A stretch of 64,000 nt of DNA from Cenococcum geophilum. Lineage: Eukaryota. The stretch is from the NCBI GenBank assembly GCA_050273025.1, contig CP158635.1:10726001-10790000 (forward strand). The letters are read 5' to 3'. Positions within the stretch are counted from its first letter, which is position 1. Every line of letters begins with the position of its first letter. Positions 8,463-49,544 of this stretch are shown piece after piece. The notes under the pieces are model-generated. The model saw nothing but the letters and a program-made list of their open reading frames with translations, was not told the origin of the DNA and ran no database searches. The position numbers were made by a program, and so were the translations under genes.

Positions 8463-8629
8463 AGTAGCTAGTAAGGAATTTCGTCTTACTATTATTAATT
8501 CTTTAGGAGTACGAAGTAAGGTAACTTATAGACACGCTGCTTCTGGCAGCGTCTACGGTATCATAGAGACGTAAAATTAGTCGTAGGCTAAGCGTCGGTA
8601 AAGAAGAAAAAAAAAAAGGCGCAACGTAA

Positions 8630-8822
8630 TGTCACGGAGCGCGGGCAATGGCTACAAAGCGTATATATTCGGGGAGTCTACAAGACGTTGCGCGATCGAT
8701 CGTAAGGGTCGAGGGCGTAAGGAGGTGATATACCTACGCGTAGCTGACGTAAGCTGTACGCGAGGTGTACGCGAGAGCACGGGGCTCTCCTATGGAGGCC
8801 CCTACGGTGGGGTTCCGTGACA
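8630..8822 (-). repeat. A1 5' LTR
   Basis: TGTCACGG...CCGTGACA perfect terminal inverted ends; followed by TSD CTGGC. Confidence 0.97.
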
Positions 8823-9152: not shown

Positions 9153-10449
9153 TCCTAGATAGATATATATAAGAACTGAGAAGCAAAGTATATCCTAAAA
9201 AGCACAGCAGAGCACCTTACAGAAGACCCCTATAAGGGAATAACTTAAGGACACAACGGAGTAATAGGCTTAGTGTTAAGGCTTTAAGAAGAATATATTA
9301 TTAACGGAATTTAGAGTATAGTTAGGAAGGTAATAAGAAAGTATCTAAATTACTAAAGAAATAAACTAATAAGGCATAAGCTATATAGAGGGCTATAACC
9401 TATTAAAATACTAGAAAGATTATCGGAGGTTATATTATAGGACTTTATTATTAAGTTACTAAAGTTAAGAGATCCTATTACCAAATAGGAATATAACGTA
9501 ATCCTAGTAATAGTAAATAAGTTAACTAAATAGGGCTACTTTATAGCATATATAGAAGAAATCTTAGCAGAAGATATAGCTAGAATCTATATTAAAGAAG
9601 TATTTATAAGGCACGGAGCACTAAGTAAGATTATATTAGATAGGGACCTAAGATTTATAGCAGCATTCTAAAAGGTATTCTTAGCGGAATAGGGAGTAAG
9701 AGCAGCAACTTCTACTATATATTATCTACAGACGGATAGATAAATAAAAAGATTAAATTAGACGCTAGAACAGTATCTAAGATATTATATTAATTACGTA
9801 TAGAATAATTAGGTATTATTATTACTAGTTATATAGTTTATATATAATATAACACCACAGGAAGGGGTAGGTATATTACTATAATAAGTAAAGAAAATAA
9901 GTGGTATAGCTAAAGAAAGAATAAAGAGATTAATAAATCTTTATATAGACCTTATAGAATTAGTAAAAAAGGTATAAAAAATAATAATAAGGTACTATAA
10001 CGCTAAGAGATCTAAGGGACCAGATCTTAAAGAGGGGGACAAAGTATAGCTACTACATAAAAATTTTAAGAGTTGACGACTAAGTAAAAAATTAGACTAT
10101 ATTAGACTAGGACCCTTTAAACTTATATAGAGGATTTTACCGGTTATATTTAAGTTAAACTTACTAGCTAAGATAAAGATCTACCCTATATAATATATTA
10201 TAATACTAAAGCTAGCACACGGGAATATTAAGCCACTAATTTATAAAGTAAACATGTATAAAGAATAAGAGGAAGATAAATAGTAAGTTTTAAAAATTAT
10301 TAGTTATAAGGATATTAATAATAAAATATAATATAAGGTTAAGTAGATAGGCTATAATAAGACTACCTAGAAACTACTATAGAACCTAAAAAACGCTATA
10401 GGAAAGGTATAGGAGTATTAAAAGAGAATAGGTTAGGCAATATTAAGAA

Positions 10450-11057
10450 AGAGCTAAAGATAAAAGGATTAGTTAAAGGTAATAAACAAGCCGGATTATC
10501 TAAGGGATCTACTACTAGTATATTAGCTGTTTCCGCCTCTTCCTAATTAGAATCCTTTTTAGCCTTCTTAGCCTTAAGCTTAGACAGACCTTACTCTACT
10601 AAACGTAACTCCTTTAAGCGCACCTTTTTATAAACCTTTACTAGACGGCTTAGGCGAGTATAAGTATTAAGTTAAGCTTTTAGAGCCTAAGACACCTTAT
10701 TAAAAATAACGCTAAACCTTAATAAGGGCCTTAGCTAGCTTACTCTCTAGTTTTTCGGCTACTACTAATATATAAGACCTTAAAACAAATTAGATAAGAA
10801 ACCAGACGGTTATAAAAAACAATAAAACGTGTATATTTAGCATTAGAGATAGATTAAATATTGTAAAATAATCGCATATTTACTTGCGTATACTTAGTAT
10901 ATAAAGAAGGTTAGTAACTAGATGAAGCCGCGATTGTAATATATACTAACTTCTTCTCCATATAACGAGAATAGGACGGCATAACTTCACTAAGTAAAAG
11001 AATAAATATTACCAGCTGATTATGATAATTAGACGCAGAGGATTTAATAAAAGGTAT
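10450..11057 (-). pseudogene. Antisense Zn2Cys6-like/coiled-coil gene of B1 (RIP-degraded)
   Basis: Minus strand de-RIPs to MP..KSSASN..NQLV.FIL.L.EVMPS(C)SR(C).EKKLV(C)...AASSS..PS.(C).(E)(C)TQ.NMR..(C); homologous to 26145-26850 and 42920-43527. 3' end approximate. Confidence 0.65.
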
Positions 11058-11165
11058 TAAGAATAATAAAGGTTATTAAATTAAAAATGGGAATGTTATA
11101 CCTTTAATAGATAACTTAGAGATAGGAGATATCTTTAAGGACAAAGATAAAGAGGAGGGGGATAG

Positions 11166-11566
11166 TGTTACGGACCTTATATTAGCAGTAGTATAGCTAC
11201 TAAAAAGAGATATAAATAGGTTAGTTAAAATAGTACGGGAGGTGCTAGAACTAGTTAAGCTATAGGATAAAAGGTAGCTAAGTTACGTAGTTAGTTATAT
11301 TATAAGTTTGGAATATAGGAACGTAACGTACCGATATATTAATATACTAACGCACTTAGTATATTTCTTAGACGTAGTATTATATATTTAAAGGACTACA
11401 GTCCCTACCTAGATAGTTCTCTTCTTTATAGTAAATCTTAGAATATAATTAGAGTTAATCTGTTAGGTAACTACTCTAGTTATATTTACGTTGTTAACTA
11501 TTCTATACCTATATACCCAGCCCATTAACAAGTCTATCGTAGTATTTCCTATAAGGCTTTATTATA
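11166..11566 (+). repeat. B1 3' LTR (~401 bp)
   Basis: TGTTACGGACC start after the PPT; matches 34142-34547 and 43636-44016. Confidence 0.93.
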
Positions 11567-14509: not shown

Positions 14510-17500
14510 ACGGAATCGACTTGGAGACGGCTATGGATAATAACCTAACGGAGTATGTGGAGACTAAGATGCACCTATATACATAATCTAACCTTACAGA
14601 CTTTGCATTATAGATAGTATTTTAGGAAGACTTTAAGAGCTTTACGCTAGAGACCTTTAAACGAGTATAATCTAATACTAAAATGGGAATCCGTTAATAC
14701 CTAGTTAAGAAAGGAGTATATATTGTTAAGTAAGATAAGAGATACTCCCTTAGCAAGGTGCTAACGGACGTCGCTAATAAAGAAGAGTTTTATAAATAGA
14801 CGGATAAGGAGCTTATCGCGGCCCTTGCAGAGGTAAAGCCAATAATTACAACAACTTTGCAAGACTGACTTAATTCGACCTTAGATAAGCTTGCTACACC
14901 TTTAGCCCCACTACCAGCTACTCTACTAACTCCACCAGCTACTCCGGTTACTGCACCACCAGCTATTCTAGCTGCTGTACCACTAGCTACTCCGGTTACT
15001 GCACCGCCAGCTACTCCAGCTGCTGTACCACCAGCTACTCCAGTTACTGCACCGCCAACTACTCCGACTGCTACCCCCGCTACCCCTACTACCCCTCCCG
15101 GTCCTTAATCCTCCAATTACAACCAAATCTACGCTCTTATTAACCAACTACTATGGCTAAGAGAGCAGTAACTGCAGTAGCTATAGCAACCGCAGCAGCT
15201 ATATATATATATACTACCTAAACTAGCCGTACCTAGTGTAGAGTAAGGACCTAGGTAAGGACCTAGATATAGTAAGGAGGTAGCTATAATTGCAAAGATC
15301 TACATAGATAACTAAAAGTACGATAGAGTTAGTGACAGCTTTAACTTCAAGTTAACTATCTTCTATAACATCTATAAGAGATCTGGCTTACTACTAGAAG
15401 GCTATATAGTGGCATTCCCTAGTATACTAAAGGGGCTTACTTAGGACCACTACTACAATAGCAACCTTAAGTTGGGGCCTTTTACCGAAGCCTGTAACCA
15501 TATATAACAATTCTTTAAAGGGCCGGAATACTACCGTAAGAACCTTATAGAGTGGAATAGTATAACCCTCTAAGGAGTTATAGACGAGAACCCTAATAAG
15601 TTAATCTATTAGAACTTTTAACTGCTAGTAGATAAGCTACTAAAATAACGTTATAGACTATACCTAGACTTCCGTATAAACCGTATTCTTATAAATAAGT
15701 TAGTTACTACTTATTAGGGAGTACTAGCATGCCGTATCGCTGTCTCTAACCCTTTAGAAGATCTCTCTTAGTTAATTAGTAAGCTATAATCCTCTATTAT
15801 TATATAGGAAAAAAAAACACCCCTTATAGGCCTTAATGAGATTATCTTACTAAGCCTTTTTTACGGATTAACGCTATTACCGAAATAACCAGAATCGAGA
15901 CTGAAATACTAATCGCTATAGTAGCAATCGCCCCTATAGAACTAATGGCAGACTAAAGGCCAAGTGCTATATCTGTAAGAAGGAGAACTGCCATTTATAG
16001 AAACACATAGAGGAGGAGCGTAATCGGTCTAGAGACGACTATAAGAGACGTTTTATTAATATTAAGGGCCGTAATAAGGGCAACTTTAATAACCACTTTA
16101 AGCAATATATTGCCGCCTGTGAAAGAGATAAAGAGGATAACTTAGACTTCAAAGCCTATATATACGACACTAATAACTTTAAAAGCGATGCCGGAGAATC
16201 TAATAATAGTTTTACCTATATTACTACCTTCGGAACACTTACTATAGAGGAAGTAACCTCTATAAGCGTAGAGCTAGCTAATAAGGCTTGTATATATCTT
16301 TTTACGGCTTTAGAACTTACTACGGAATCTACCACGGAACCTCGTATAAAGACCGACCCATTTACCTATAGCACGGCCATAACTACAGCGTCACGGTATA
16401 CCTTAACGGTCTTTATAGGAATTATAATTAATACGGGTGCTTTAAGTAAGTCTATAGCTAGCTACAGCCAATTCTAAGCCCTATAGGCCGTAGATAAGTC
16501 TGTAAATCTTAATACGTTAACTAAGGGCTAAGTAACTATCTAATTTAGAATTGGAGCCTCTACGTCTATTAGAACTATAGACGTTAACAGCCCTATAGGA
16601 AAGGTATAATTCCATATTATTAAAGCAGATACTTCTTTCCTACTTTGCTTAGCAGATATAGATAGACTCTATATTAAATATAATAACCTAAAGAACGTCA
16701 TTATTACTCGCACTAAAAAGGTGCCAGTAGTTAGACGATTTTGCCACCCATTTCTCTTATAGAGCTTCTTCTTATAATCTTATTTAGTTAAGTCTTTTAA
16801 TACAAACCCGTGCTACTTAACTAACGTAAAACTACAACGTCTATACCGTTAATTTAGTTACCTATTAGTTAATAAATTGCAAAAGCTTCTTAATAAGGCT
16901 GGCTATGGCTATAATACTAATAGATTTGCTATTGAAGAGCTAACTAGACTCTACTACCACTGCCAAAAGTTTAGTAAATCTTTTGGTAGATTTCGCTTTA
17001 CCTTACAAGATAACGTTAATTTTAATTATAATATTATTATTAACATTATATATATTAGCGGCTCCCCCCTACTATATATAGTTGATAAAGTAACTCGATT
17101 TTAAGCTAGTAGATAGCTATAAGATATTAGCTCTAAGTACACTTAGGACATTCTACAAATGTGCTAGATTAATAGCTATTTAGGACTACTAGACTTAATT
17201 ACTACAGACGCTAAAAAGAACTTCGTTAGTAAGGAGTTTAAGCACTATGCTGCTACTATAGGAGCAACTATAAAGTTAGTTCTAGTCGAATCACACAATT
17301 CTATTAGAATAGTAGAACGCTACTACGGTCCACTACGACGATTCTACTAAATTATTACGACTAAAATCCCTAAAATTAGCAAGGAGATGGCCCTATAAAT
17401 AGCCTTCAAAGCTATTAATAACACGGCTGGCCTAAAAGGCCTAGTCTCTATACTTTTAGTCTTTAGAGCCTACCCCTGAATGGTTAAATTGGACGCACTA

Positions 17501-19645
17501 TTACCTTTAGTTACACAGCGAGCTACGGCTATTAAGAAAGTAATAGTGGAAATCTAGAAACTATAAGCTAAATAATAGATCGCTAACGCTCTTAATATGC
17601 GAAATAGACTACAAACTAACGCTATTTACGGCCTCCTACCTAGTTCGCCTATCTTAGTCTAGAGAGAAGGTAATACCGGCTAAAGTAGTTATTGGGATGG
17701 ACTATATATACTGCTTGCCGTTAACAGTAAGACCTATACTATAAAGCTACTAAATAGGCCTATAACCTTCTGCTTTATAGTTATAAAACCTTATTTACCG
17801 GACCTATAAGACCCAGTTAAACTATAAAAGTCTATTAAATTAAATAAACTAGTACCTTTACCAGCTAAACCTTAATTGTTACCTAAGGCTGAACCATAGC
17901 TACCGCTAAAGCGAGGTAGAGGTTGCCCCCATAAATACCTATTGCTTACGGCCGTTATAGACGTAGCTGTTACGGATGCTATAATAGATATAGGTGCTTT
18001 TACGGGTGATATTGCGGATATCGCTAATATCGCTATCTACTTATAGGACGATAATACCGTAGATACGGCTAACACTACTATTTACTTATAGAACGATAGC
18101 AACACCTAATTTAGCGCTTTACGATAAAAGGAGGTTATAGGCCTACTTAAGAAAGGCGTCTTTAAGATTATTAAGCTATATAATATACTAAAGGGGGTTA
18201 GACTCTTTAATTTACAGTTTATTAACAAGATTAAGAATAAGGGAACTAATAAAGCCTTTAAGAAATCACAACTTATTATATAGGCCTATAACGATTTAGA
18301 GAAAGAGCTAGTCCTTACTTAGTTACTAACAATTTAACAAGTTAGCTAGCGGCTAATTCTTAGTATCGCTGCTATACTACTATAGATATAACTCTACCTC
18401 CGAGACATCTTATAAGCCTACGTCTAGTCTACTACGAACCTAAACCGCGAGTTCTATATATAACTACTACACAAGCTAAATATATAATTGGGAATTAATA
18501 CGGACTCCATTCTAAAGGTTATAAAGCCACTTTATAAAGTACCTAAAGCTAGAAACCACTGGTTTAAGACCTACTATTTACACTACGTTAATTAGCTGCG
18601 AATAGACTAGTCTACATACAACCCTTGCTTACTTTAGAGCGATAAACCTTTCGGAATTATTGGCCTATAGACTAATAATACACTATTTCTCGCAGATAAC
18701 ACCTTTATAGAGGCTGAATAAAGCGAACTATATAAGGCTAAATTTATAGCTAAGAAGTGAGAGCAACTAACCGCTAATACACCAATTAAATTTAATAGAG
18801 GACTTATTTAATTAATATAAGATAGGAGTATTATACTAACGTAAAGGCGCTAGTGTAAAAACCTTAGCGTGGTTAACACTACGCTAGCAGATAGTATTAG
18901 CTCTAGGGGAGTTACGCGTGGCCTACTTACACTAAAGGACTAGTATATCGCTTAACGCGCTAGAGGAGCCTATATCGCCTTAGTTTATTAGCTAGAGGCT
19001 TTATTTAACTTATCCTTTACTGCCTAGGTAATTAATTCTAAGGAGATAGATATAAAGGAGTTAAATAAGCGCCTAAGTTAGCAGATTTAGAACTTATGTA
19101 GAGGTTTTAAGTTTATCAAATTGGAGGCTAAGACCCTATAGCTCTTAGTCTTTATAAACGCTTCCTTTACTAATAATAAGGACCTCTCTTCGTAAATTAG
19201 CTATATTATTATACTAGCTAACGCAACTAAGAAGGCCAATATTGTCTATTAGAGCTTAATTAAGTGTAAAAGAGTCACTAGAAGCGTCCTGGCTTCTAAA
19301 CTCTATAGAATGGCTTACGGCTTTAATATCGCCGTCGCCATCAAGTCTACGGTAGACAAGGTCCTACAGATTAACCTCCCACTTATACTTTGCACCAATT
19401 CTAAGTCGCTATATAACTGTCTTGTATAACTTGGAACCACATAAGAGAAGCGATTAATAATTAATATAATATGCCTATAACAAGCCTATAAACATCAGCA
19501 GATCATAGAGGTTAAATAGATCGATAGTGAAGCTAACCCTGCGGACGCGATGACTAAGGGGAAGCCTTGTGTCGCTTTACAGCGACTTATTAACACAAAC
19601 CAAGTCGATATACAGGCTGTAGGTTGGGTAGAACGTAAGGAGTAA
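14510..19645 (+). pseudogene. D1 gag-pol polyprotein, RIP-inactivated
   Basis: De-RIP motifs: CYICKKENC (15964), GIII(D)TGA (16418-16440), integrase LITTDA.KNF (17194-17224), RT KSRL.IQAYND, LRDI.QAYV.S, KPLY.VPEA.NHWF, GL(Q)T(DD)TL (18660-18690), RNase H LVF.(D)ASF.NNKDLSS.I.Y and NPADAMTK. Start approximate. Confidence 0.9.
14905..15105 (+). repeat. 24-bp coding minisatellite in D1 gag (PPATPVTA/PPATPAAV-like, ~8 units)
   Basis: Repeated CCACCAGCTACTCCRGYTRCTGYA. Confidence 0.85.
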
Positions 19646-19663
19646 TAGAAGGGGGTTTGCGGG

Positions 19664-19905
19664 TTATGTAACTGGTAGAAGATAGCAGAAAGTTATATAA
19701 CTAGCAGAAGATAGCAGAAAGTTATATAACTGGCAGAAGATGGCAGAAAGTTATATAACTGGCAGAAGATGGTAGAAAGTTATATAACTGGCAGAAGATA
19801 GCAGAAAGTTATATAACTGGCAGAAGATAGTAGAAAGTTATATAACTGGTAGAAGATAGTAGAAAGTTATATAACTGGCAGAAGATGGTAGGAAGTTATA
19901 TAACT
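19664..19905 (+). repeat. 29-bp tandem array in D1 3' UTR (~8 units)
   Basis: Unit GTTATATAACTGGCAGAAGATRGCAGAAA repeated head to tail. Confidence 0.95.
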
Positions 19906-22900
19906 TATATTATTATATTACGGACCTATAAAAGGAGCGTAGAAGCTATTGCGTATACGCTATAAATAGTCTAGAAGTAGACTTAACTTTGGAGTGTAGA
20001 TTAGCCTTCTTTTTAGAGTTGCTCCAGTGTCGGAACGTTAATCATGTAACGTGGTTACGAGACCACGAAGTAAGACTAACTAATCTGACCTTGGAGCAAC
20101 CCCTGGAAAAAGACAACAATTAACTACCAACTTCAACACCGTATACATACCACTACAAGTGATATTCGTGCACGTTGATAAAGCGAGTATACCGACAATA
20201 ATTGTTTAATTTATATTTAAGGTAGGTCTATATAGGATAGATTTATTCTTAGATTTATCTTTAATAGGCTTTAGTAGACTAATTATCTAAATAATATCCT
20301 CTAATACTTCCCTTAACAAGTAGTTAATATTCTAACCCTTAGGGTTATAGAACAAGGTCTCGTTAAATATAACGTCTTTAGTTTAAACAACTTTGCGGAG
20401 ACTTAGAATCTAGATATAATAGATATTAGTTAAATCGTAGCTAACTAGATGTTTAATTACTGCATAAGGAGCTAGTTTATCTCCCCTTTTAATTTATTTA
20501 TCGAGTATATAGGTTTTATAGCCATATATATATATATAGGTAAGTAATAGCAGCTTTCCGTAAGCTATCTTGTACGGAATTTTCCATCCTAGTTACTTAT
20601 TTAGTGTTTAATTAAGTGTATATTTAGTAGTAAGGAAAGCTTCTGGTCCTAGAGATAATAGTAAAAAAGCTTCTAGCTGTATAGCCCTTAATTATTCTAT
20701 AAGGGTTCGTCTAGATTATTTAGCTTTACTATTTTATTCTTTAGTATACAGTGCTTAATATTTAAAAGTAATACCTTTATCTACGCACTATATCTATAAG
20801 GTATCTCCCGTCTGTCTAAAAGCTTATTTATTATTACTCTGGAAGAAGATAATGTCTTAATAGAATTATAATTTAATTAATTAATGTGTCTTATAAATGG
20901 TAGGTAGGACGGTAGCTTTATTTTTATTCTTAGCGGTAAATATAAAATTAAATTTAGAATACGTGCAATAGAAGTATATTACGTATCTATTACCGTTATA
21001 CCCTAGTTCTCTAAGGGTAATAATATTAAATACTAGCCGTTTAAATGGTTAAGTAGCTGGAAATTTATATTCTTGTTTTTAAGAGATCTGCTATATATGC
21101 TTTGCTAATAAGTAAACTTTATATTTAACTTTAAGCGGTGCTTGTTCGTTAATTAGCTCTTTAAGCTCTGCGCTATTAACGTGCTTAGGAAGCTGCTTAA
21201 TAGCATTAGGTCCTGTATAGCTAAGTATTTTATGCTATTTTATAGCTATAGCTCTAATTAGTTTATAGGCTATTCTGCTTAGTTAATGTCTTCTTATTAA
21301 AAAGGTCGATTAAGTTATTAAATCTAGGGTAGGCTCTCTGTGTATTAGTGCCTGGTGGCCCCTATATCGTTTTATATAGTAGACTATTTCGCTAGTTACT
21401 AGACAGTATAGTAAGTTTTATTCTAAGTTAAAATAAATATTGTTATTAGTAGCTCTTAAAAGCGCTACGATATTTATAAATATGGTAGGTACTAGCGCTA
21501 TATAGGATAGCTTTATTTTTAAGTTCCTAGTAGGTGTATTAATAATAATAGTTACTATTTAATAAGCTTATATTTTCTTAAAATTTCCGCTAGTAATTAG
21601 GTAGTTGTTTTCTATAGCTAGTTATAAGAATATAAAATCTTCTTTGTTATTGTAGACGTAGGTATCTATACTAGGGTTAAGTATCTAGGTATTCTAGAGT
21701 TTAAATAAAATTTAACTAGCACTAAATACGGCAGTATAGCTAGTTAGGGTTTTGGAAGGTAGGGTTTTAAAATTAAAATTAATTATAGATTTTATATTCT
21801 TCTAATTATTCTTCTTTACTTCCTATTCTCTTTTTAGAATAAGGTTAACGATGCGTTTAATTTAAGGTGTAAATAAGATCTTTTTATCTACTTTCTTCTA
21901 AATATCTGGGTTTGGTTTCTATTCTTAAGGGCGCTTATACTTAGTAATATAGTAGTAGTTACCGAATTAATGTATAAGGCCGCATATATATATTTTATTC
22001 TACTTAAAATTAGAATTAAAATTGCCGTTAAAATCAAATTAGAATTTAAATTATTTTAAAGGGTTATAAACGCGGAGTTATTAGCAGTAAAGGTAGAAAA
22101 TGCTTACTATATACGGTAGTGCTCCTTAAATTCCTTAATAAGATTAATAATAGATAGGGCGTTTTTATCCTTCCGTTCTTTCCTAATAAGGTCTACTTTT
22201 AGTGCTCTTATAAAACTAGAAGAGATAAGTTTAATTGCTTAAATAAAATTATAGTGTGGCCTAAATCCCTATATATTTGGTAGCTCTAATTACTCTATAA
22301 GCTTATAGACGTTCCACTAGCTGTTTAACTATTTATTAATACTCTGCTTTTTATTATAGGCTTTTAAAGCTGTATATTAATTAAGAACGTTTATACTTTT
22401 AACCTAAAAAGGTAAAGATAAGTGTAGTCTTTAATACTTAAAGCCGTTTGTGTACTGTGTTAAGGCCGTTAATAAGTAAAAGGTAGGCTACTAATATAGT
22501 GCAAACGATGTAGTTGCTAATATTATTTATAGCCTATTTTTGCTTCTTATATACGTATAAATCGTCCTTATATTTGGCGTAGAGCTAATTATAGGCAGTA
22601 AGCTTAATTTGGTCTAGTTAAGCTATTAATATAGTATTAGGAAGTACGTCCGCTAGTATAGGTTAATGCGGTAGTTTTAGCTTTAGAAGCTCGTCTTTTA
22701 TAGATAGGTCGATATACTACTATACCTTATTAGTTATAGCTATATTTTAGATAATAAAGAACTATTAAATCTAATTAGATAGCTAGTTAAGGATAAGGTT
22801 AACTTTTAATTTATTTATAGTTGTTATTTTTAGAATTTATAGGGTTAAGTAGGATCTAATTAGTATTTTAGTAAAAACCTTAGTTTAACGTTCCGAACTT

Positions 22901-25076: not shown

Positions 25077-26144
25077 AGGTCCTATTAGCTTAAAGTATAT
25101 TATTAAGAAATATATAAGTAGGAATTAGTTTTAGTAACTTAATTACTACTCTTAATATATAAAGCTACAGTTAAAGAATAGCTTTATATTTAGGTTTACT
25201 TTAAATAAAGTTATAACCCTTATTAAAATTATTTAGCTTACTTATAGAAAGATTTATACCTTTAATATATATATTATTGTTATAGAGTAAGTATAAGTAA
25301 TAATAATATATAACGAAGTAGATATTATTAAGCTACGTATATAAACTGCGTAGTAAAGTTTAAACGGTATATAAAGAAAGAAAGTAAGGAAATAGAAATG
25401 AATGGTATATATTATTAGCTTAGTTATTTAGTTAATAAGTATATAGAGTAGAATAGGTCCTAGTAGAATTACTAAACTTAGCCAAATTTGGTAGAAGTTA
25501 TAGATATTGCTAATATTACGAATATTGCGAATATAGGACAATCTTATAATAGTAGATAGGATATAGCAGAATATAGTAGACTAACTCGTCTATAAAGTAT
25601 ATACACTATATATGCCTAGGAAAAATATAACAAAGCCTTATAGTAGGTACTATGGTAGACTTATTAATGGGCTAAGTATATAGGTAAGAACAATAGTTAA
25701 TAACGTAAATATAACTGGTGGAGTAGTTACCCAATAAATTAACTCTAATTATATTCTAAGATTTACTACAAAGAAAGAAACTATCTAGGTAGGGACTAAG
25801 GTCCTTTAAATACACAAACTGCGCCTAAGAAAGTCCTTGCTCCGTTTACTCTATTTATTCTATCTACTCTACTATAGATTATATAGATTATATAGATTAT
25901 ATTATATAACCTTAGTTACTATTCCTTATTATATAGTTCTACTAGTTCTATTCTAGACCGTACCTATATTAACCAACTAGCTTCTTCCAACTCTTCTCCA
26001 AGTAGTTATAACATTGTACTTAAAGCGTCCGTAACACTATCTCCCTTCTCTTTATCTTTATCCTTAAAGATTCCTAATATCTCTAAGCCGTCTACTAGAG
26101 GTATAATATCCGTCTAATTAATTTAGTTAATATCTTTACTTATT

Positions 26145-26850
26145 ATACCTAAGACTCCTTCTTCTTCTTCTATAGCTCGTTGGTCTCGTACCATTACTGC
26201 AATATTATCTCTTAGTAAGATAATGCCATCTCCGTATTCTTGTTATGTGAAAGAGGGGTTAGTCTATATTATATTAGCGAGTCCCTTATCCTAATAACCC
26301 TCCTCTTATTTAGAGTATACTAGGGTAAACGCCCAATTGTCTTATAATGTTCGCTCTATTTCCAACGCTAAGTATACGCGTCCTATAACCCTTAATAGTC
26401 TTTAAGTTCCCTAAGTAATTTATTATAGGGTTTTATATTTAATCTGCCGCTGCAAAGCTTAATAATAAACTATTAGTGGCGCTGGCTGAACTTTGTCATT
26501 CTTGTAATACTAAGTAAGAGGCTACCGCTGCTTAATAACGGGCTCTTAACTCTTGTCTTACTGCCTCTACTTAGTTAATCCGTCTTAAAAAGGTTCGTAA
26601 GAAGGTGCGTTTTAAGGAGTGGAAACTTATAAAATAAGGTTTACAGGAACTTAGTAATAAAAGAATGGATTCTCTTCTAATAGAGAGGGAAATAGCTCTA
26701 AATACCTTGGCAGGTGCTCCTCTTAGGTCCCCCTTAGGTGACTTATTCTTTAGTAATCCTTCCTTATTAATGCTGCCTAACCCCTTTTCTTCCGATACTC
26801 CTGTACCTTTTTTATAGCATTCCCTAAATTGCCTAGTAGCTCCTAGGTAG
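26145..26850 (+). pseudogene. Antisense two-exon Zn2Cys6-like/coiled-coil gene of B2
   Basis: Six in-frame TAT codons (RIP of TGT) at 26235-26345 spaced C-x2-C-x6-C-x13-C-x2-C-x8-C; putative intron 26374-26428; exon 2 frame has only CAA/CAG-revertible stops and reads ...LIRL(E)KVRKKVRF(E)E.KL.(EQ)GLQEL. 3' end approximate. Confidence 0.7.
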
Positions 26851-29800
26851 TCTTATTATAGCCTATCTACTTTACTTTATACTATATTTTATTATTAATA
26901 TCCTTATAACTAATAATCTTTAAAATTTACTATTTATCTTCTTCTTGTCCTCTATACGTGTCTGCCTTATAGACTAGTGGCTTAATATTCCCGTGTGCTA
27001 GCTCTAGCATTACAATATACTATATAGGGTAGATTTTTATTTTGGCTAGTAAGTTTAACTTAAATATAACTAGTGAAATCCTTTATATAATTTTAAAAGG
27101 TCCTAGTCTAACATAGTCTAACTTCTTACTTAGTTATTAACTTTTAAATTTTTTGTATAGTAGCTATACTTTATCTCCCTCCTTAAGATCTGGTCCCTTA
27201 GATCTCTTAGCGTTATAGTATTTTTTTTATTCTTTACTATACTACCTTAGCTATATCCGTAAGGTGTATATAAAGATTTATTAATATCTCTATTCTTTAC
27301 TTAGCTGTGCTACTCGTTTTTTTTACTTAACGTAGTAATAATAATGTTCTTAGCTTGTATCTATAATTCGCCTTAAATAGTAATATACCTATTCCTTCTT
27401 AAGGTGTTGTATTATATATAAACTATATAACTAGTAATAACAATACCTAATTATTCTGTGTATAATTAATATAATACCTTAGGTACTGTTTTAGCGTCTA
27501 GTTTAATCTTTCTATTTATCCGTCTATCTGTGGATAATACGCTATTAATATTACTACGCGAACCCCTTATTTAGCTAAAAATACCTCCTAAAATACTACT
27601 ATAAATCTTAGGTCTCTATCTAATATAATCTTTATTAGTGCTCTATATCTTATAAACACTTCTTTAATATAGATTCTAGTAATATCTTCCACTAAGATTT
27701 CTTCTATGCATGCTATAAAGTAGCCCTATTTAGTTAACTTATCCACTATTACTAAGATTGCGTTATAATCTTATCCAGTAATAGGATCTCTTAACTTTAG
27801 TAACTTTATAATAAAGTCCTATAATATAACCTCCTATAGTCTCTCTGGTGTTTTAATAGGTTGTAGCCCTCTATATAGCTTATACCTTATTAATTTATTT
27901 CTCTAATAATCTAAACATTTTTTTATAACTTATCTTACTAGTCCCCAGATTCCTTAAATAATATACTCTTTTTAAAGTCTTAATACTAAGCCTATAGCTC
28001 CATTATGCCCTTATATTATTCCCTTATAGAATTCTTTAACAAATTCTTCTGTAATAGACCTTAAAACATAAGTTACTTCTCTATTCTCGTACTAGTCTAT
28101 ATTTGGATCCTTACTCTATACCTCTTAGATCTTCTATATCTAATCACTCTTTAGTAATTTGTAGATCTGGCTAATTTCTCTTATTACTACTATTTTAGGA
28201 TAATTGTATCTAATTAATCCGTCTTTATCCTTTCGTAATATTGCTCCTAATAATTTCTTGTTATTTTATAGTTTAGCTTTTCTACTAAGCGTGTCTGCTC
28301 TTACATTATCTGTACCCTTAGTATACTAAATCTTAAAATAGTATTCTGCAAGCATCTCTGCCCATCTAACTTGTCTTTAGTTAAGTTCTTTTATTATTAA
28401 GAACCCCGTTAGGTTCTTATAATCTATCTTAACTATAAATAGTTTCTCTATTTCTTATAAGAATGCTCTCTATTCCTTAAGTGCTGCAACTATACCTAAT
28501 AACTCTTTATTATAAATGTTATAGTTTAGTTTTAATAGTGTTATCTTTTAACTATAGTATGCTACTAAATGCTATACGTCCTGGTGCTTCTATAGCAAAT
28601 ATACTCCTAGTATAAAGTCTAATGCGTTTATTTCCACAACTGTATCTAACCCTAATTAGTAGATTTTAAGAATTAGTTCTTAGGTAAATAGCTCCTTAAG
28701 TTTTTGGAATAGCTTCTTTTACTTACTTCCCCATACCTATAGTTCCTCCTTCTTTGTAAGCCTAGTGAAGGGTTTAATATTCTTTAACCACTACGCTATA
28801 AACCTTCTATAGTAGTTGCAAAACCCTAAAAACGATCTTAACTACGTAACGTTCTCTAGTTCTTACCAACTAACTATAACTTCTATCTTCTTTAGGTCTA
28901 TACTAATATGACCTAGTTTAATAATAAATTCTATAAAATCGGTCTTCCTGGTAAAGAACTTGCATTTCTTAATTATTACTAGCATCTATTCTTCCTATAG
29001 TCTCTTTAAGACCTATTTAACGTGTTCTCTATATTCTTCCTTACTTATTAAGTATATAATAATATTATTAAGGTATACTATAACGAACTCATTAAGGTGT
29101 TCTTTTAATATACTATTAATCCGCTTCTAGAATGTCGCTAGTACGTTTATAAGCCCGAATTGCATAACTAATGGCTTATATAGTCCTTCCTTTAACCTAA
29201 AGGCTGCTTTCTATTCGTCGCCTTCCTTAATCCTAATCTAATAGTACGCCCACCTTAGATCTATCTTTATAAAGATTTGCGTATTACCTATTCTATCTTA
29301 GATCTTACTAATTAAGGGTAAAGGATACCTATCCTTTCTAGTAATGCTGTTTAACTATCTATAGTTAATGCATAGTCTTAGTTTTCTATTCTTCTTTAGT
29401 ACGAATAGTACTGGATATCCTACTAATAATTACGATGGTCGGATATATCCCTTTCGTAGATTTTCCTAGATAAACTCTTTTAAGGCTCTTAACTCCTCTT
29501 CAGTTAGCTTATAGATTAAAAAGAATTTTAGACTTGTTCCTAGTTCCAACTCTATTTTATAATCCTATACTATATACTCTAACAGCTTCTTACTTTCTAG
29601 TGACTATAACTTTTTACCATACTTATGGTATCTCTTTAGTATATAACTTAATCCTTAATTAGTCTCTTTATAAGTTACTCTAACTTAGCACCATACTATC
29701 TTAGTCTGTTATTATATCTTGCAATATTAAGTATCTTTAATATTAACCTGTCCTGTAACCCAATTAATTCTTAGATTATATTTCTGTAACTAAGGTATAC

Positions 29801-32812: not shown

Positions 32813-33888
32813 AATCCTCCCTAACTAGAGAATATAAATCACACTTCCTAATTAGTGGTGGCTATGCCGTTGGCCTATACCTCGGTAAGGTAAGGTTTAA
32901 ACCACTTAAGTGCTTATCCCGTTAGGAATAGTCCTATGTACGCTACTTAATCCATAAATATTAGTAGCTTTGCTACTTCTTATATAACCTTAAAATGTAT
33001 CTATATTAGAAATCCCTTAAGCTTTAACTTCTTACCTACAAATCTCTTAATTAATAGTAACTTAATCTTTGCTGCTTTAACCGCATTAAGTCTTTCTTTA
33101 AGTCTTTTGTTATTATCGTTTAATTAATTAACTATTTCCTATAACTATCCAACCGTAACTAGTTGCGAATTAGTGTCTTGCATACTTATATCGCCACTCG
33201 TTCTTAAGGTAGTTACTACTATTAACGGCGTTGTAACTGGTGCTTTCGGTAGCATATTGTTTAACTCTTTTTTATTAATACCGTAATTAGGTAGTAAATA
33301 TGTAATAAAGCCTTATAGTAGGTACTACGGTAAACTTGTTAATGGGCTAGGTATATAGGTAAGAATAATAGTTAATAACGTAAATATAACTAGTGGAGTG
33401 GTTACCTAACAGATTAACTCCAATTATATTCTAAGATTTACTATAAAGAAAGGAACTATCTAGGTAGGGACTAAGGTCCTTTAAATACACAAACTACGCC
33501 TAAGAAAGTCCTTACTCTATTTACTCTATCTATTCTATCTACTCCGCTATAGATTATATAGATTATATTATGTGACCTTAGTTACTATTCCTCGTTATAT
33601 AGTTCTACTAGTTCTATCCTAGACCGTGCCTGTATTAACTAACTAGCTTCTTCTAACTCTTCTCCAAGTAGTCGTAATATTGTACTTAAAGCGTCCGTAA
33701 TAAAAAACCCTTCCTTACCTTATATATAGACTCCTCCTTTCCTATAAGGATTTGTCTATATATATAATATACCCTATTATTCTATTAATTAGACTTCCTA
33801 TCTATATCTTTACCTTATATTTAAATCCTTATTAATTCCCTTAGAAGGATAGCCGGTTTAATTTTTCTATAATACCTCTTAAAAACCC

Positions 33889-34141: not shown

Positions 34142-37100
34142 TATTACGGACCTTATATCGGCAGTAGTAGCACTACTAAGGAGAGATATAAACGGACTAG
34201 TGGTAGAAGTACAGGAGGTGCTGAAACCAGTTAAACTATGGGATAAGAGGTAACTAAGTTATATAGTTAGTTACGTTATAAGTTTAAAACATAGGAACGT
34301 AATATACCGACGTATTTAACGTACTAACGTATTTAGTATATTTCTTAGGCATAGTATTATATATTTAAAGGACTACAGTCCCTACTTAGATAGTTCTCTT
34401 CTTTATAGTAAATCTTAGAATATAAGTAGAGTTAATCTATTAGGCAACTACTCCACTAGTTATTATTACGTTATTAACTTCTTATTTACCTATATACCCA
34501 GCCCATTAATAAGTCTACCGTAGTTCTTACTATAAGGCTTTGTTATATATTTACTACTAAGGTTACAGTATTAACAAAGTTAAATAATATACCACTAAAA
34601 GCACTAGCCACGACGCCGTTAACGGCAGTAACTACTTTAAGATTAGGTAATAACACTAGTATAGTAGATACTAACTTATAACTAGTTATAGTTAGATAGT
34701 TATAGGAAATAGTTAATTAATTAATAGACAATAATAAGATACTTAAAGAAAGAATTAATAGAATCGGAGCAGCTAAGGTTAAGCTACTATTAATTAAGCG
34801 ATTCTTAGGGGAGAAGTTAAAACTTAATGGATTTCTTACGTAAATATACTTTAAGGTTATATAGGAGGGAATAAAGCTAGCAATATCTATAGACTAAGTA
34901 GCCTATGCAGGATTGTTCCTAATAGGGAGGGTACTTAAGTAATTTAAACCCTATCTTATAGAGGCATAAGAATATAGTATAGCAACTTCTAATTAAAAAG
35001 TATAATATATATTTGCTAGCTAAAATAGGTTTGCGGAATAATTAACGCAGATATTTAGAGACCTAAAAGTAACTACTATAGTAAAATAAAAGCTTTAAAA
35101 CCTAGTATAACAAACCTTAGCAATTAAGTATATAACGCAGTTTTAAATATTAGCTATATAGGTTAAATAGAATAATAAGGCGCTTATAGTATAGTATAAA
35201 TAAGGACTTAAAGCAAAAGTCTAGAACGTAATTATCCTAATAGAAGATATAGAAACCCTATAAGATCTAATTAATTAAGTAATTAAAATTAATAATAGAA
35301 TCTACTAGAGGGAATAGACTAAGAAAGGTTAGAATAGAGTTCTATAGTTATATAAGGCGTAAAGTACGCAATAATAAAGTTAAAGTTAAAAACTATAGTA
35401 TAGTGTAGAACTAATAGACCTAAGTAGTATTAAAGAATCTAGAAGATAGAATAAGAAACTATAAAAACCTAGAAGTTAAGGATTAAGTAATTATAAGACT
35501 GGGGGGTAGAGGCTAAACTAGGGATCTTAGTAGCAGAAAATATTTAGGCGGACTCTATAGCAAGAAAAATAGTTTAAAGAAGGAGCTTATATAAATTATA
35601 GAAAATAAGGTTATTTTTATTAAAGACTATAAAAGTAGTTAAAGTTACTATATAGTAAAAGAAATAAAACTAGTAGATAATATATACGTATAGAGGGATA
35701 ATAATATGCTATAAGGAATAAAGGAATGTTCGATTAAAAGTTTTACGTTTTATTATAATAACGCATACCAAATTTATAAGGACGCTAAGTATAGCGTAAG
35801 CTATTAGCTATAGGAGCTAAAATTATTAAAGTTTAAAGGAATCAATAAACTATCTCATAGATTAGATATTAAGGACGATAAATTTAATATAGGCGAAATA
35901 TTTAGCACTAATAAGGCAATAAAGGCAGCTTACTAGGAGTATATAAACTTTAGAGAAGTTGTAATAAAAGTAGAGACTAAGACTACTATAAAATGGGGGT
36001 TGGTAATAGAAATTATAATACTATGAAATATAGCATCCATCGCTTTATAAGAAGGAAGGAGAAACATTTAAGAAAAAGGATTAAGTAAGTAGATAACTGC
36101 TAGTGCTAGCTTACTACATAATAAAGGCAAAAGGCCACAGGCTTAAGATTCTTAAGAAGAGATAAGATATGCTTAAGGACCTATAATAGACGACAACCGA
36201 TAGAGCAGAGTAACGGCTTAGTTTAGTAATATATAAATAAGCTTAAGACGAAGTTTCCTAAAGGCATAAGATTCTTAAAACGAGATAAGTAAGATTTAAA
36301 ATTCTTAAGATAAGATAAGAATACTATAGAAGCCTAGTTAGACTAAGGCTAGAGCTAGGCTTAAAAAAAGCAAGCTTAGGATTAAGAGTTCTATAGGACT
36401 AAGATTTTAATATATAAATAAGGACTATTAAGAAAATTAACACTAAGATTAAGAAGTAGGAAAATTTTAAGGATCTACTTATAAGGCAAAAAACAAAAGA
36501 AACTATAGAGGAATTTAGATAAAGAATCCTTATATAGTAAGAATAGAAACTAAACTAGAGATCTAGTATACTAGGTCGTACTAGGGATAGAGTACCTATA
36601 TAAAGAATAACTAATAGGCCTAAGATAGGCACGCTAAGAGCAAAATAGCTTACTAAACTAAAATAAGAAGAGGATCTAAAAATCCCTACTAAATTTAAAG
36701 AATAATATATAAAGGGCTATTATAATATAGTAATAAGAAGATACTTCCTTATAGATAAGCCGTATATACTCTAATAGCTATACTAAAAGTAGTATAGGCA
36801 GCAATATAATAATAAGTGGGAAGATTTTTATATATAGTTAGATAAGCGAGTTATCTAGGACCACCCTATTATAGAAAAAGCTATAAGTTATATTAAGGGA
36901 GCCTTAATTATAACGTTAAAGGATCTAGAGGAATAATTAGAGGACTAAAAAAGCAAAAGGCATATCTTAGTACCCGCGAATAAAGTTATAATATTTAGAT
37001 TAATATAATAGAGGTTTAAACTTAAGGATAAAGACGAGTTAAGAATTAACCTAAAGCACCTAGTATATTATACGCTATTATAGATTATATACGTAGATAA

Positions 37101-37469
37101 TATATACAATATATATAAAAATAAAAAATAAAAAAATTAGAAGTACCCTACATCGGGAAAATATGGTACCCTTTCAATGGCCTTAATAGCTGGTGGTTGA
37201 CGCAATTGGCGCGCAGTTAAGGTCATTTGGCAACTTAACCGACTAGCCTATATCGTGTTTTTTTGACACGCAGCCTGCGCGCAGCCTACGTATAACCTAC
37301 GCGTAACCTACCAGCAATCTACGCATTTGGTAACTATAATTATATTTACCTCTTTTATACTAATAGCATATTTTAAATAAATAAAAGCTACTTTAAAGCT
37401 ATTTATAAGGCTAGCAAAATAAATATTATTATTTTAGATAATTTAATATAATATAGCGATGGTTCTCTT

Positions 37470-37735
37470 CTACCTATCTACCTATTAACTTACTTACCTA
37501 CCTATATTGCCTACCTATCTACATTGCCTACCTATCTGCATCGCCTACCTATTTATATCTACTTGCCTGTCTATATCTACTTACCTATCTATATCTACTT
37601 ACCTGTCTATATCTACCTACCTATCTATATCTGCTTGCCTGTCTACATTTACTTATCTATCTATATCTGCCTACCTATCTATATCTACCTACCCGTTAGT
37701 ATCTCCCTATTTATGCCTACCTATCTATGCTACCT
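37470..37735 (+). repeat. Degenerate 18-bp array in X1 (TACCTRTCTATATCTACY)
   Basis: Direct reading; produces the spurious ORFs at 37507 and 37524. Confidence 0.9.
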
Positions 37736-37784
37736 TAATTTAATTAATCGATTGAATCGTTTATAGTGTTCGCTGGCTAGTCGT

Positions 37785-38245
37785 TGTTGTCTGGCTCTGG
37801 TAATAGTCGTCTGGTTCTAGCGATAGTCGTCTAACTTTGGAGACGGTCGTCTGGTTTTAGCGACGGTCGTCTAGTTCTAGCGACGGTCGTCTGGCTCTGG
37901 CGACAGTCGTCTGGTTTTGGCGACAGTCGTCTAACTCTAGAGACGGTCGTCTGGTTTTGGCGACGGTCGTCTGGTTCTGGTAACGGTCGTCTAGTTCTAG
38001 TAACGGTCGTCTGGTTCTGGCGACGGTCGTCTAGTTCTAGCGACAGTTGTCTGGCTCTGGCGATAGTCGTCTGGCTCTAACGACGGTCGTCTGGTTCTGG
38101 CGACGGTCGTCTGGCTCTGGCGACGATCGTCTGGTTCTGGTAACGGTCGTCTGGTTCTGGTAACGGTCGTCTGGTTCTGGTAACGGTCGTCTAGTTCTGG
38201 CGACGGTCGTCTAGTTCTAGCGATAGTTATCTAGTTCTAGCAACG
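37785..38245 (+). repeat. 20-bp tandem array in X1 (~23 units, GGCGACGGTCGTCTGGTTCT)
   Basis: Head-to-tail units without spacers; variants are mostly C>T/G>A; same unit at 58610-58685. Confidence 0.95.
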
Positions 38246-38379
38246 GTCCTCTGCTGGCTGCCGTTCTAGTGCCTCCCTAGGTAGGGAGGATGTAAGGAAG
38301 GAAGGAAGGGTAAAAAATAAGGCGGCTATATAGGCAGAGACACGTGTAGACGCTATCGGGAATATAGCGGGGACCCGAT

Positions 38380-38882
38380 GCAGAGCTTCGTGTAGAGCCT
38401 CCGTACGCAGAGCTTTACGTAGAGCTTCGCGCAGAGCCTTGTGCAGAGCCTCTGTACGTAGAGCTTCGTATAGAGCTTCGTGTAGAGCTTCGTGTAGAGC
38501 CTCCGTATGCAGAGCTTCGCGCAGAGCCTCGTGCAGAGCTTCGTGTAGAGCCTCCGTACGCAGAGCTTCGCGCAGAGCCTCGTGCAGAGCTTCGTGCAGA
38601 GCTTCGTGCAGAGCCTCCGTACGCAGAGCCTCGCGCAGAGCCTCGTGCAGAGCCTCTGTACGTAGAGCTTCGTGCAGAGCTTCGTGCAGAGCTTCGTGCA
38701 GAGCTTCGTGCAGAGCTTCGTGCAGAGCTTCGTGCAGAGCTTCGTGCAGAGCTTCGTGCAGAGCTTCGTGCAGAGCTTCATGCAGAGCCTCTATGCGCAG
38801 AGCTTCGTGCAGAGCCTCTGTACGCAGAGCTTCGTGTAGAGCTTCGTGTAGAGCCTCATGCAGAGCCTCGTGCAGAGCCTCT
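38380..38882 (+). repeat. 12-bp array with 14-bp variant units in X1 (GCAGAGCTTCGT / GCAGAGCCTCCGTAC-type)
   Basis: Direct reading; produces the CTKL and RASC repeat ORFs. Confidence 0.95.
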
Positions 38883-39004
38883 AAGTAATAAGACTATATA
38901 AGATTGTATAAGATTATATTAGATAGTATATAATAGTTAAATATATAGCATATAACTTTACCTTAATTGCATATTAAGAAATATACAGTTACCTTTTAAA
39001 GTTG

Positions 39005-39250
39005 CTAAGTAGGTTAACTGCGTATTATTTAACTTTTAAATATATTAAGTTAGTTAATTGCGTGTTAATTACGTATTAAGTTAGTTAAATTGCGTGTTAA
39101 GTTAGTTAATTGCGTATTAAGTTGGTTAAATTACGTATTAAGTTAGTTAATTGCGTGTTAAGTTGGTTAAATTGCGTATTAAGTTAGTTAAATGCGTGTT
39201 AAGTTAGTTAATTGCGTGTCAAGTTAGTTAAATTGCATGTCAATTACGCG
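39005..39250 (+). repeat. Subterminal 20/21-bp array of X1 (AAGTTRGTTAA(A)TTGCGTRTY)
   Basis: About ten units next to the right TIR; inverted partial motifs (TTGACACGCA, AACTTAACCGAC) near the left TIR at 37195-37275. Confidence 0.88.
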
Positions 39251-42200: not shown

Positions 42201-42919
42201 TGAATAGTATCTAAGATATTATATTAATTACGCATAAAATAATTAGGTATTATTATTACTAGTTATATAGTTTATATATAATACAATACCGCAGGAAAAA
42301 ATAGGTATATTACTATTTAAGGTAAATTACGGATATAAGCTAAGAATATTATTATTACTATAATAAGTAAAGAAAATAAGTAGTATAGCTAAGGAAAGGA
42401 TAAAGATATTAATAAATCTTTATATAGACCTTATGGAATTAGTAAAGACAGTATAAAAAAAAAAGTACTATAACGCTAAGAGATCTAAGGGACTAGATTT
42501 TAAGAAGGGGGATAAAGTATAGCTACTATACAAAAATTTCAAGAGTCGACAACTAAGTAAGAAGTTGGACTATATTAGGCTAGGACCTTTTAAAATTATA
42601 TAGAGGATTTTACCGGTTATATTTAAGTTAAACCTACTAGCTAAAATAAAAATCTACCCTATATAGTATATTATAATACTAGAACTAGTATATAGGAATA
42701 TTAAGCTATTAATCTATAAAGCAGATACGTAGGGAGGGTAAAAAAAAGATAAATAGTAAGTTTTATAGATTATTAGTTATAAGGACGTTAATAATAAAAT
42801 ATAGTATAAGGTTAAGTGGATAGGCTTTAATAAGACTACCTAGAAGCTACTATAGAACTTAAGAAATGCTATAGAAAAGATACGGGAATATTAGAAGAAA
42901 AAGGGTTAGGTAATATTAA

Positions 42920-43527
42920 GAAGGAGCTAAAAATAAAGAAATTAGTTAAAGGTAATAGACAAGCTACATTATCTAAGGGATCCACTACTAGCATATTTTA
43001 TTTCCACCTTATCTTAATTAGAATCCTTTTTAGCCTCCTTAGCCTTAAGCTTAAAAAGACCTTATTTAATAAGACGTAACTTTTTTAAGCGTACCTTTTT
43101 ATAAACCTTTACTAAATGGCTTAGATAAGTATAAGTATTTAGTTAAGCTTTTAGAGCCTAAGACGCCTTATTAAAACAATTTTAAACTTTAGTAAGGGCC
43201 TTAGCTAGTTTACTCTTTAGTCTTTTGGCTGCTACTAATATATAAAACCCTAAGATAAATTAAATAAGGAACTAGACGGTTATAAAGATTAATAAAATAC
43301 ATATATTTAGCGTTAGAGGCGGATTAAATATTATAGGATAATTATATATTCGCTTATGTATACTTAGTATATAAAGAAGGTTAGCAACTAGACGGAGCTA
43401 TAATTATAATATATACTAACTTCTTCTTCGTATAATAAGAATAGGACGGTATAACTTTACTAAAAGAAATAATAAACGTTACTAGCTAATTATAATAATT
43501 AGATATAGAGGATCTAATAGAAAGTAT
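42920..43527 (-). pseudogene. Antisense Zn2Cys6-like/coiled-coil gene of B3 (RIP-degraded)
   Basis: Colinear with 10450-11057; same TAT-for-TGT spacing. 3' end approximate. Confidence 0.62.
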
Positions 43528-44016
43528 TAGAAATAATAAAGGTTATTAAATTAAAGACGGGAATACTATACCTTTAATAAATAACTTAGAGATAGGAGAT
43601 ATCTTTAAAGATAAAGATAAAGAGGAGGGGGATGGTGTTATGGACCTTATATTAGTAGTAGTAGCACTATTAATGAGAGATATAAATGGACTAGTAGTAG
43701 AAGTATAGGAGGTATTAGAACTAGTTATATTATAAGTTTAGAATATAGGAACGTAGGAATATAGGAATACAGCGTACCAACGTACTAATATACTAACGTA
43801 CTTAGTACATTTCTTAGGCGTAGTATTATATATTTAAAGGACTACAGTCCCTACCTAAATAGTTCTCTTTTTTATAGTAAATCTTAGAATATAATTAGAG
43901 TTAATCTGTTAGGCAACTACTCCACCAGTTATTATTACGTTATTAACTTCTTATTTACCTATATACCCAGTCCATTAATAAGTTTACTATAGTTCTTTCT
44001 ATAAGGCTTCGTTACA

Positions 44017-44127
44017 CTATATACTATAAATATATATTTTTTAGGCATTTCTACTACTATTATCTGTTTAGGTATTTTTCTATAAGGAATCTTTTTAGTT
44101 AAAGTATTAAGTTATTTAACTCCTAGA
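44017..44127 (-). mobile_element. B4 relic, right part
   Basis: Matches 30229-30325 and continues 34141 across the CTATA TSD. Confidence 0.75.
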
Positions 44128-49427: not shown

Positions 49428-49544
49428 GATACTAAAGACTAAAAAGATCTTCTTAAAAAAGTTACTTATTGCCTTAGTTATACAGCCGCTAGCTATAACT
49501 ATAATAACGTTTATAATATAGTAGCAGCCCTACGGAAGATTAAA

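Follow-up and report, generated by a model that had tools for sequence, protein, structure and literature searches.

The HBZ gene of human T-cell leukemia virus type 1 (HTLV-1) is antisense, spliced and driven from the 3′ long terminal repeat (LTR), and its product is a coiled-coil (bZIP) regulator of viral transcription. Among fungal retrotransposons, an antisense gene named brtn was reportedly described in the Boty element by Zhao et al. in 2011, in Virology 417:248. In the passages of later papers that refer to it, brtn appears as an additional antisense gene of Boty-like Ty3/gypsy elements from Botrytis cinerea and Sclerotinia (PMC8365987, PMC7264820, PMC4227169, PMC5987419), and one of these papers also mentions antisense additional open reading frames (ORFs) between pol and the 3′ LTR of the plant elements Grande, RIRE2, Retand and PvRetro13 (PMC7264820). 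The locus considered here lies in a 64,000-nucleotide (nt) stretch of the Cenococcum geophilum genome, hereafter the window (GenBank assembly GCA_050273025.1, contig CP158635.1, positions 10,726,001 to 10,790,000 of the forward strand; all positions below are counted from its first letter). Three copies of a retrotransposon family in this window, B1, B2 and B3 of family B, bear on the strand opposite to gag-pol the remnants of an additional gene, and the intact form of the element very probably carries there a real two-exon protein-coding gene. An initial annotation of the window had proposed a spliced antisense gene for a Zn2Cys6-like cluster joined to a coiled coil. The gene is well supported and dead in this window, and the arrangement as such has already been published for Boty and the plant elements.

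The closest described arrangement is brtn of Boty and the closest functional analogy HBZ. As far as the cited passages describe it, brtn resides in a chromodomain-bearing fungal Ty3/gypsy host as well, and lies likewise between pol and the 3′ LTR in antisense to gag-pol; the initial annotation had brought up this precedent, and according to the citing passages it exists (PMC8365987, PMC7264820). None of the matches in the protein searches made here carries the name BRTN. The plant ORFs share position and orientation with the gene of family B, are conserved across copies and, in the passage that lists them, have no assigned function either; in contrast, they belong to other element lineages, and no protein relation to them is known. 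HBZ resembles the present gene in being an antisense, spliced gene at the 3′ end of a retroelement and in combining a coiled coil with a putative nucleic-acid-binding module. However, there is no sequence relation between the two, the element here is a fungal LTR retrotransposon, and its antisense promoter is a deduced one. A literature search returned no paper linking a fungal antisense retrotransposon gene to a six-cysteine/coiled-coil protein, and the survey "LTR Retrotransposons in Fungi" (PMC3248453) has neither "antisense" nor "zinc" in its text.

The gene model for B2, in which confidence is high, starts with an ATG (now ATA) at 26145, is interrupted by an intron at 26374–26428 and ends with the stop codon at 26815–26817, giving 205 codons (Table 1). 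The gene (26145–26817) thus sits between the end of the B2 chromodomain and the 3′ LTR, on the strand opposite to gag-pol, with the codons of its tail overlapping the chromodomain end encoded opposite. The placement between pol and the polypurine tract/3′ LTR, claimed at the outset, is borne out by the positions of the LTR, SH3 and chromodomain matches, and the starts named for the three copies (26145, about 11057 and about 43527) turned out to be homologous ATA codons. All three window copies are dead through repeat-induced point mutation (RIP) and unable to make the protein: each of them holds 7 to 10 in-frame stops, the starts are lost, the splice sites are mutated, and B1 and B3 are frameshifted in addition. 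The window as a whole has the features of a RIP relic, with TpA excess, CpA/TpG depletion and differences between copies of the C>T and G>A type; the TA/AT index varied from 1.55 to 2.09 and the (CA+TG)/(AC+GT) index from 0.17 to 0.76 across all 32 bins of 2 kb, and the sequence is AT-rich throughout, with a GC content of 0.25–0.44. A de-RIP reconstruction gave a spliced frame of 205 codons with six cysteines, one internal stop and the terminal stop.

The case for the gene was built on relatives from outside the window. Stops were read as X in the queries, and the exon 2 profile was built from the three window copies. A back-translated motif scan of metagenome contigs gave 615 stretches; tblastn confirmed 597 of these, 80 were retained as loci, and the column counts given below rest on 69–70 aligned copies drawn from them. 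The exon 2 profile found 131 database proteins at an expect value (E) of 0.01 or less among 597 candidates, all of them unnamed ORFs from environmental assemblies. Against a representative library the same profile (87 positions) gave 98 matches at E ≤ 0.001, all unnamed and none longer than 151 amino acids (aa), without any longer intact member, and none of the cluster names of 20 matches was informative. Two intact proteins served as references, the full-length P0299 (239 aa) and the N-terminal P0158 (152 aa). With stops read as X, B2 exon 1 aligned to P0158 at 47% identity (BLASTP, E 7e-20) and B2 exon 2 to P0299 at 37% identity (BLASTP, E 2e-19). All 8 in-frame stops of B2 are replaced in relatives by CAA, CAG, CGG or TGG, and the 6 internal stops of its exon 2 by CAA, CAG, CGG or similar codons. 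That every B2 stop is TAA or TAG holds for 8 of 8, yet it is uninformative in RIPped DNA. The borders of the frame are conserved as well: the start column reads ATG in 18 and ATA in 50 of 69 aligned copies, an in-frame stop upstream at 26115 is TAA in 64 of 69, and as terminal stop 66 of 69 copies have TAG and the other 3 TAA. There are two candidate starts, the conserved upstream ATG column at 26145 and an internal Met at 26223. A comparison of residues 1–30 of P0158 with residues 1–51 of P0299 showed that the latter has no Met at the upstream site, and it may begin at the internal Met homologous to 26223.

As claimed initially, six in-frame TAT codons with the spacing x2-x6-x13-x2-x8 are read directly from the B2 sequence at 26235–26345, and the pattern was found again on the minus strand of B1 and B3, where it recurs because the copies are homologous. 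Judged from the relatives, these TAT codons are RIP-mutated cysteine codons. The exon 1 pattern was present in 68 of the 80 loci (69 matches), with Cys at positions 1 to 6 in 28, 42, 15, 25, 61 and 33 of the 69, respectively, and Tyr otherwise; single copies carry from 0 to 6 cysteines, and one (L031) has all six. The search pattern itself admitted Cys or Tyr alone at the six positions. The 12 loci dropped by it were read by eye and had exclusively Cys or Tyr at every position retained, having missed the pattern through a flanking residue, a frameshift (L024) or a truncation (L035). In the 69 aligned copies the six columns contain TGT, TGC, TAT and TAC exclusively, and a change from TGY to TAY is of the G>A type made by RIP. 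The His codon CAT, from which RIP could also have produced TAT, was not seen in the six columns of the relatives. Moreover, the database ORFs P0158, P0171 and P0299 have all six cysteines and no stop, so that the proposed conversion of TGT to TAT by RIP was upheld by relatives and intact ORFs alike.

The segment of about 55 bp at 26374–26428 that had been taken for an intron is present and ends with TAG, and in relatives it shows the whole set of GT-AG intron features: GT, AG, a branch-like site and an exact intron-less form. Of 70 aligned copies, 15 have G and 55 have A, as B2 does, at its first base (26374), and all 70 have T at the second. In the 3′ TAG, the T and the A are invariant among the 70 copies, and the G is kept in 68. 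At position 26419, 40 of the copies carry C and 30 carry T, and a branch-like TAAC accordingly stands 9 nt upstream of the 3′ end in 40 of 70. The codon created at the junction, T|GG (Trp), is found in 69 of 69 copies. Six database ORFs lack the 55 nt (P0010, P0158, P0252, P0299, P0304 and P0306, on contigs of 921–1423 nt) and read ..SVS(D/N)(A/S)EW|S(R/Q)V.. exactly at the predicted borders, while 68 further ORFs continue into the intron. The tblastn matches of P0010 in most of the 80 loci start at residue 16, the first after the junction, or later; against this pattern, those of 5 loci start earlier, at residues 1, 5, 13 and 15. Since the GT-AG borders exist on the antisense strand alone, an antisense transcript of relatives has been spliced. 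The idea that the antisense orientation preserves the intron through retrotransposition was judged to be sound established logic. By transversions the intron is better conserved than exon 2 (0.02–0.04 against 0.07–0.18 in the homologous columns of 26374–26428 in 70 copies), perhaps owing to splice signals or to stop codons of the pol frame that lie within it. Two variants differ in this region: P0153 reads ..SDAECTFHVRSAAARL.. at the junction instead of ..AEWSRVQS.., and P0286 has the first Cys triad joined straight to the coiled coil; both may be deletion derivatives or products of alternative processing.

A first hint of coding came from the length differences between B2 and B1/B3 inside the gene, which amount to 3, 3, 21, 6, 12 and 3 nt, besides one private frameshift in each of B1 and B3. 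Purifying selection in the antisense frame is evident from diversity computed on transversions only, a class that RIP does not make. For antisense codon positions 1, 2 and 3, exon 1 gave 0.041/0.013/0.069 (p 4e-4) and exon 2 (26431–26700) gave 0.075/0.069/0.179 (p 6e-9); neither the intron nor either of the shifted frames had a significant codon periodicity of transversions. The antisense-frame periodicity was seen again in the 60 nt that precede the internal Met, 0.09/0.05/0.27, and the upstream start is therefore supported.

Two readings would do away with the antisense gene altogether, and several observations weigh against the interpretation given above. The six TAT codons could be a chance pattern in TA-rich, RIPped DNA that was repeated in B1 and B3 by homology. 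Indeed, the pattern Y-x2-Y-x6-Y-x(5-16)-Y-x2-Y-x(6-8)-Y, with Tyr alone, is matched 7 times in the window, 4 of these matches being unrelated to family B, and 42 of 100 second-order Markov simulations of the window had at least one such match (mean 0.56). The Tyr pattern alone is thus within chance, and it is the outside sequences that carry the case: with Cys present in relatives at each of the six positions and with intact proteins in existence, chance is refuted as an explanation and keeps next to no probability. These outside sequences have their own weaknesses. The 80 loci fall into just three contig-name series and are therefore many copies of few genomes; the relative loci are RIP-like too (TA/AT 1.46–1.77 in the 23 loci with indices); the intact members are database ORFs; and the contigs of the six intron-less ORFs could be RNA- or DNA-derived. 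The other reading concerns pol. In the reconstruction, no ancestral stop interrupts the pol frame between the chromodomain and 26425, a position within the antisense intron, so pol nominally overlaps the whole of antisense exon 2 (26425–26880, minus strand) and the conservation of exon 2 could partly serve pol. When antisense exon 2 was resampled synonymously, 2.6–3.3 stops were expected in the pol frame, with a chance of 0.014–0.06 of finding none; dual coding of exon 2 or a compositional accident may account for this. Taken further, there would be no antisense gene at all, the conservation and the open frames being by-products of a long C-terminal pol tail whose mirror frame was picked by gene callers. 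Against such an origin, the most variable site class is position 2 of the pol-frame codons, which equals antisense position 3, and exon 1 with its six cysteines lies beyond the pol-frame stop. Neither would a pol tail explain the six ORFs that lack an intron whose GT-AG borders exist on the antisense strand alone, nor the conserved antisense start and stop codons, and we consider it very improbable.

The protein of the intact gene falls into four segments: a leader (about 30 residues), a C-x2-C-x6-C-x13-C-x2-C-x8-C module, a helix of about 75–100 residues and a Pro/Ser/acidic-hydrophobic tail. The second exon had been described as a helical stretch rich in K, R and E, and AlphaFold2 indeed predicts a long helix in intact members, uninterrupted at residues 77–151 of P0158 and 98–200 of P0299, with a block score in the predicted local distance difference test (pLDDT) of 94–99. 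The helix has the conserved core RL.RLEKVREKVRSKEW.LVEQGL. A heptad count in windows of 28 residues, crude as it is, gave hydrophobic residues at 0.5–0.75 of the a/d positions, in comparison with 0.2–0.35 elsewhere. A structure search with the P0158 model in 48,161 chains returned generic coiled coils alone, over residues 72–152 and with Z of at most 7.5, and was silent on the Cys module.

An important question is whether the six-cysteine module is of the Zn2Cys6 kind, for which the known spacing is C-x2-C-x6-C-x(5-12)-C-x2-C-x(6-8)-C. The likeness to Gal4-type factors lies in the six cysteines arranged as two C-x2-C-x(6-8)-C triads with a Pro-containing loop between them, followed by a short linker, a long coiled-coil-like helix and an acidic-hydrophobic tail. 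However, the profile and structure searches did not sustain the family membership that the initial annotation had suggested. The Pfam gathering scores are 21 bits for Zn_clus (PF00172) and 22 bits for DUF3716 (PF12511). Zn_clus stayed below its score in every member tested, the best being 16.5 bits (P0171) and the intact full-length P0299 reaching 8.1 bits. Its alignments cover a single C-x2-C-x6-C triad, paired with only the second half of the model, which both triads of the element protein resemble, and X-read translations of the window copies matched no Pfam family in 6 of 6 pieces. When PDB sequences were searched with a profile, none of the 11 chains at E ≤ 10 was of the Gal4 type, most of them being C2H2 fingers (best E 0.021), and in the ESM Atlas the closest clusters (scores of at most 0.88) are unnamed Ascomycota proteins and not Zn_clus. 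The Cys module has a pLDDT of 47–66 in both AlphaFold2 models, with short helices starting at each C-x2-C. Moreover, the family consensus has one Lys as the sole basic residue between Cys2 and Cys3, and the 13-residue loop of the window copies and their relatives is one residue beyond the Zn2Cys6 range. The element protein also differs from Gal4-type factors in its size of about 205–240 aa, in the lack of the fungal transcription-factor middle homology region and in being encoded by a retrotransposon. Because of the sub-threshold Zn_clus scores, the lack of a Gal4-type PDB chain and the low confidence of the module, the protein is, as far as profiles and models can tell, not filed as a Zn2Cys6 family member.

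These differences leave room, at a little short of an even chance, for a real gene whose six-cysteine module is some other small module held by zinc or disulfides, for instance one like DUF3716, with protein or RNA as its binding partner; the product of such a gene would be an adaptor or chaperone and not a transcription factor. The half-motif alignments, the searches without Gal4-type chains or Zn_clus neighbours and the single Lys all speak for it, as do the DUF3716 matches of two members over nearly the whole profile (P0171 with 16.4 bits at positions 7–59 and P0301 with 15.4 bits at positions 3–59 of 59). Nevertheless, DUF3716 is below its gathering score as well, and Zn_clus is the most recurrent of the weak Pfam matches: at E ≤ 1 it was found in 8 of the 27 members of one alignment (A8), none of which reaches 21 bits, whereas any other family, DUF3716 included, was found in 1 of 27. 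The spacing of the cysteines, save for the loop longer by one residue, and the succession of a Cys module, a short linker and a long coiled coil also remain those of Gal4-type factors. For the gene of family B, a zinc-dependent nucleic-acid-binding role is therefore put forward as a best guess with a Gal4-like layout, and a role as an element-specific nucleic-acid-binding regulator is proposed tentatively, as a possibility with more doubt than support.

Since the ATG lies 110 nt inside the LTR edge, the antisense promoter may be placed in or near the 3′ LTR, and a transcript starting there would then be spliced. With the genomic RNA being of the opposite strand, retrotransposition would leave the intron in place. 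The product might be a zinc-binding factor that oligomerizes via its coiled coil and acts on the expression or the copy number of the element. The widest version of this idea, in which a widespread ascomycete lineage of chromoviruses would be "complex" retroelements with a Gal4-like zinc-cluster/coiled-coil factor made from a spliced antisense gene, binding the LTR or host chromatin, setting transcription or shielding the element from silencing and thus acting as a fungal counterpart of HBZ, is rather unlikely to hold in full. If the product is a regulator, many fungal Ty3/gypsy elements would not be plain gag-pol elements and would possess a trans-acting factor of their own, with a bearing on the escape from silencing or its tuning. 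Such a gene is invisible to standard annotation because it is antisense and spliced, and because RIP makes Cys read as Tyr and Gln or Trp as stop. The intact environmental homologues P0158 and P0299 provide sequences for direct tests of zinc binding, DNA binding and oligomerization. For the window itself the outcome is an ordinary one, namely a repeat region degraded by RIP in which three dead copies lie.

The reads of one RNA-seq run (X1, of which about 12 in 100 was covered) and three contig sets were compared with positions 25600–27400. Eight reads were found, all from X1 and lying only partly on the stretch; by read depth, six of the eight fall into LTR bins and two into the pol-side bin 27186–27246. 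In this part of the one run there were no joints and no depth over 26088–26392, so that the dead copy gave no sign of expression in what was read.

Table 1. Coordinates of the antisense gene in the three copies of family B and of features of the host elements in the window
Feature	Position	Strand	Remarks
Exon 1, B2	26145..26373	+	start now ATA; leader of about 30 aa and six-Cys module
Six TAT codons, B2	26235, 26244, 26265, 26307, 26316, 26343	+	former Cys, C-x2-C-x6-C-x13-C-x2-C-x8-C
Intron, B2	26374..26428	+	55 nt; 5′ site now ATACGC (formerly GTGCGC or GTACGC); TAAC changed to TAAT; 3′ TAG
Exon 2, B2	26429..26817	+	stop TAG 26815-26817; long helix and Pro/Ser/acidic-hydrophobic tail
Exon 1, B1	10835..11057	-	start ATA 11057-11055; first TAT 10973
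Intron homologue, B1	10780..10834	-	3′ AG mutated to AA
Exon 2, B1	10396..10779	-	private +1 frameshift; 5 in-frame stops
Exon 1, B3	43305..43527	-	start ATA 43527-43525; first TAT 43443; internal Met now ATA at 43452
Intron homologue, B3	43250..43304	-	
Exon 2, B3	42869..43249	-	private 2-nt deletion; 5 in-frame stops
B2 element	LTRs 25617-26034 and 33292-33700	-	self-BLAST 89.2% identity over 418 nt
3′ LTR of B2	25617..26034	-	self-BLAST against 33292-33700
Probable polypurine tract of B2	26037..26053	-	purine-rich run directly before TGTTAC at the LTR edge; borders approximate, inferred
Chromodomain core of B2 pol	26840..26880	-	KVK*IGYNKTT*E, formerly KVKWIGY..TTWE; minus-strand translation
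B3 element	LTRs 34144-34556 and 43638-44026	+	internal matches to B2 at 72-77%
B1	9156-11566		3′ fragment; 82% to B3 and 73% to B2 (self-comparison)

The host element is classed, by its predicted domains, as a fungal Ty3/gypsy chromovirus, because pol domains are encoded opposite the gene in two of the relative loci (L020 and L002). The opposite strand of both encodes RVT_1, RT_RNaseH and SH3_Tf2-1 domains, and that of L020 also Integrase_H2C2 and, at the homologous place, Chromo (E 6.5e-4, below the Pfam cut-off). On B2 pol itself only SH3_Tf2-1 was recognised, a Tf2-1-type integrase SH3 match just upstream of the chromodomain in the minus-strand frame, with 24 bits against a cut-off of 30. 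Of 69 relatives, 30 and 4, respectively, have W in the two stop columns of the B2 chromodomain motif.

The 5′ LTRs of B2 (33292–33700, minus strand) and B3 (34144–34556, plus strand) stand head-to-head, about 440 nt apart. B3 is interrupted: its matches to B2 end at 37145 and resume at 39305, leaving a gap of 2.2 kb (37146–39304) that contains two direct-repeat arrays, seen as staggered self-matches at 37786–38253 and 38379–38881. As a whole, the window is a mosaic of RIPped elements. Other long repeat families occupy 2924–8822, 14590–20197 and 47814–63854 and form inverted pairs at 82–84% identity, such as 2924–6387 with 63854–60392 and 14590–19629 with 55010–50041.

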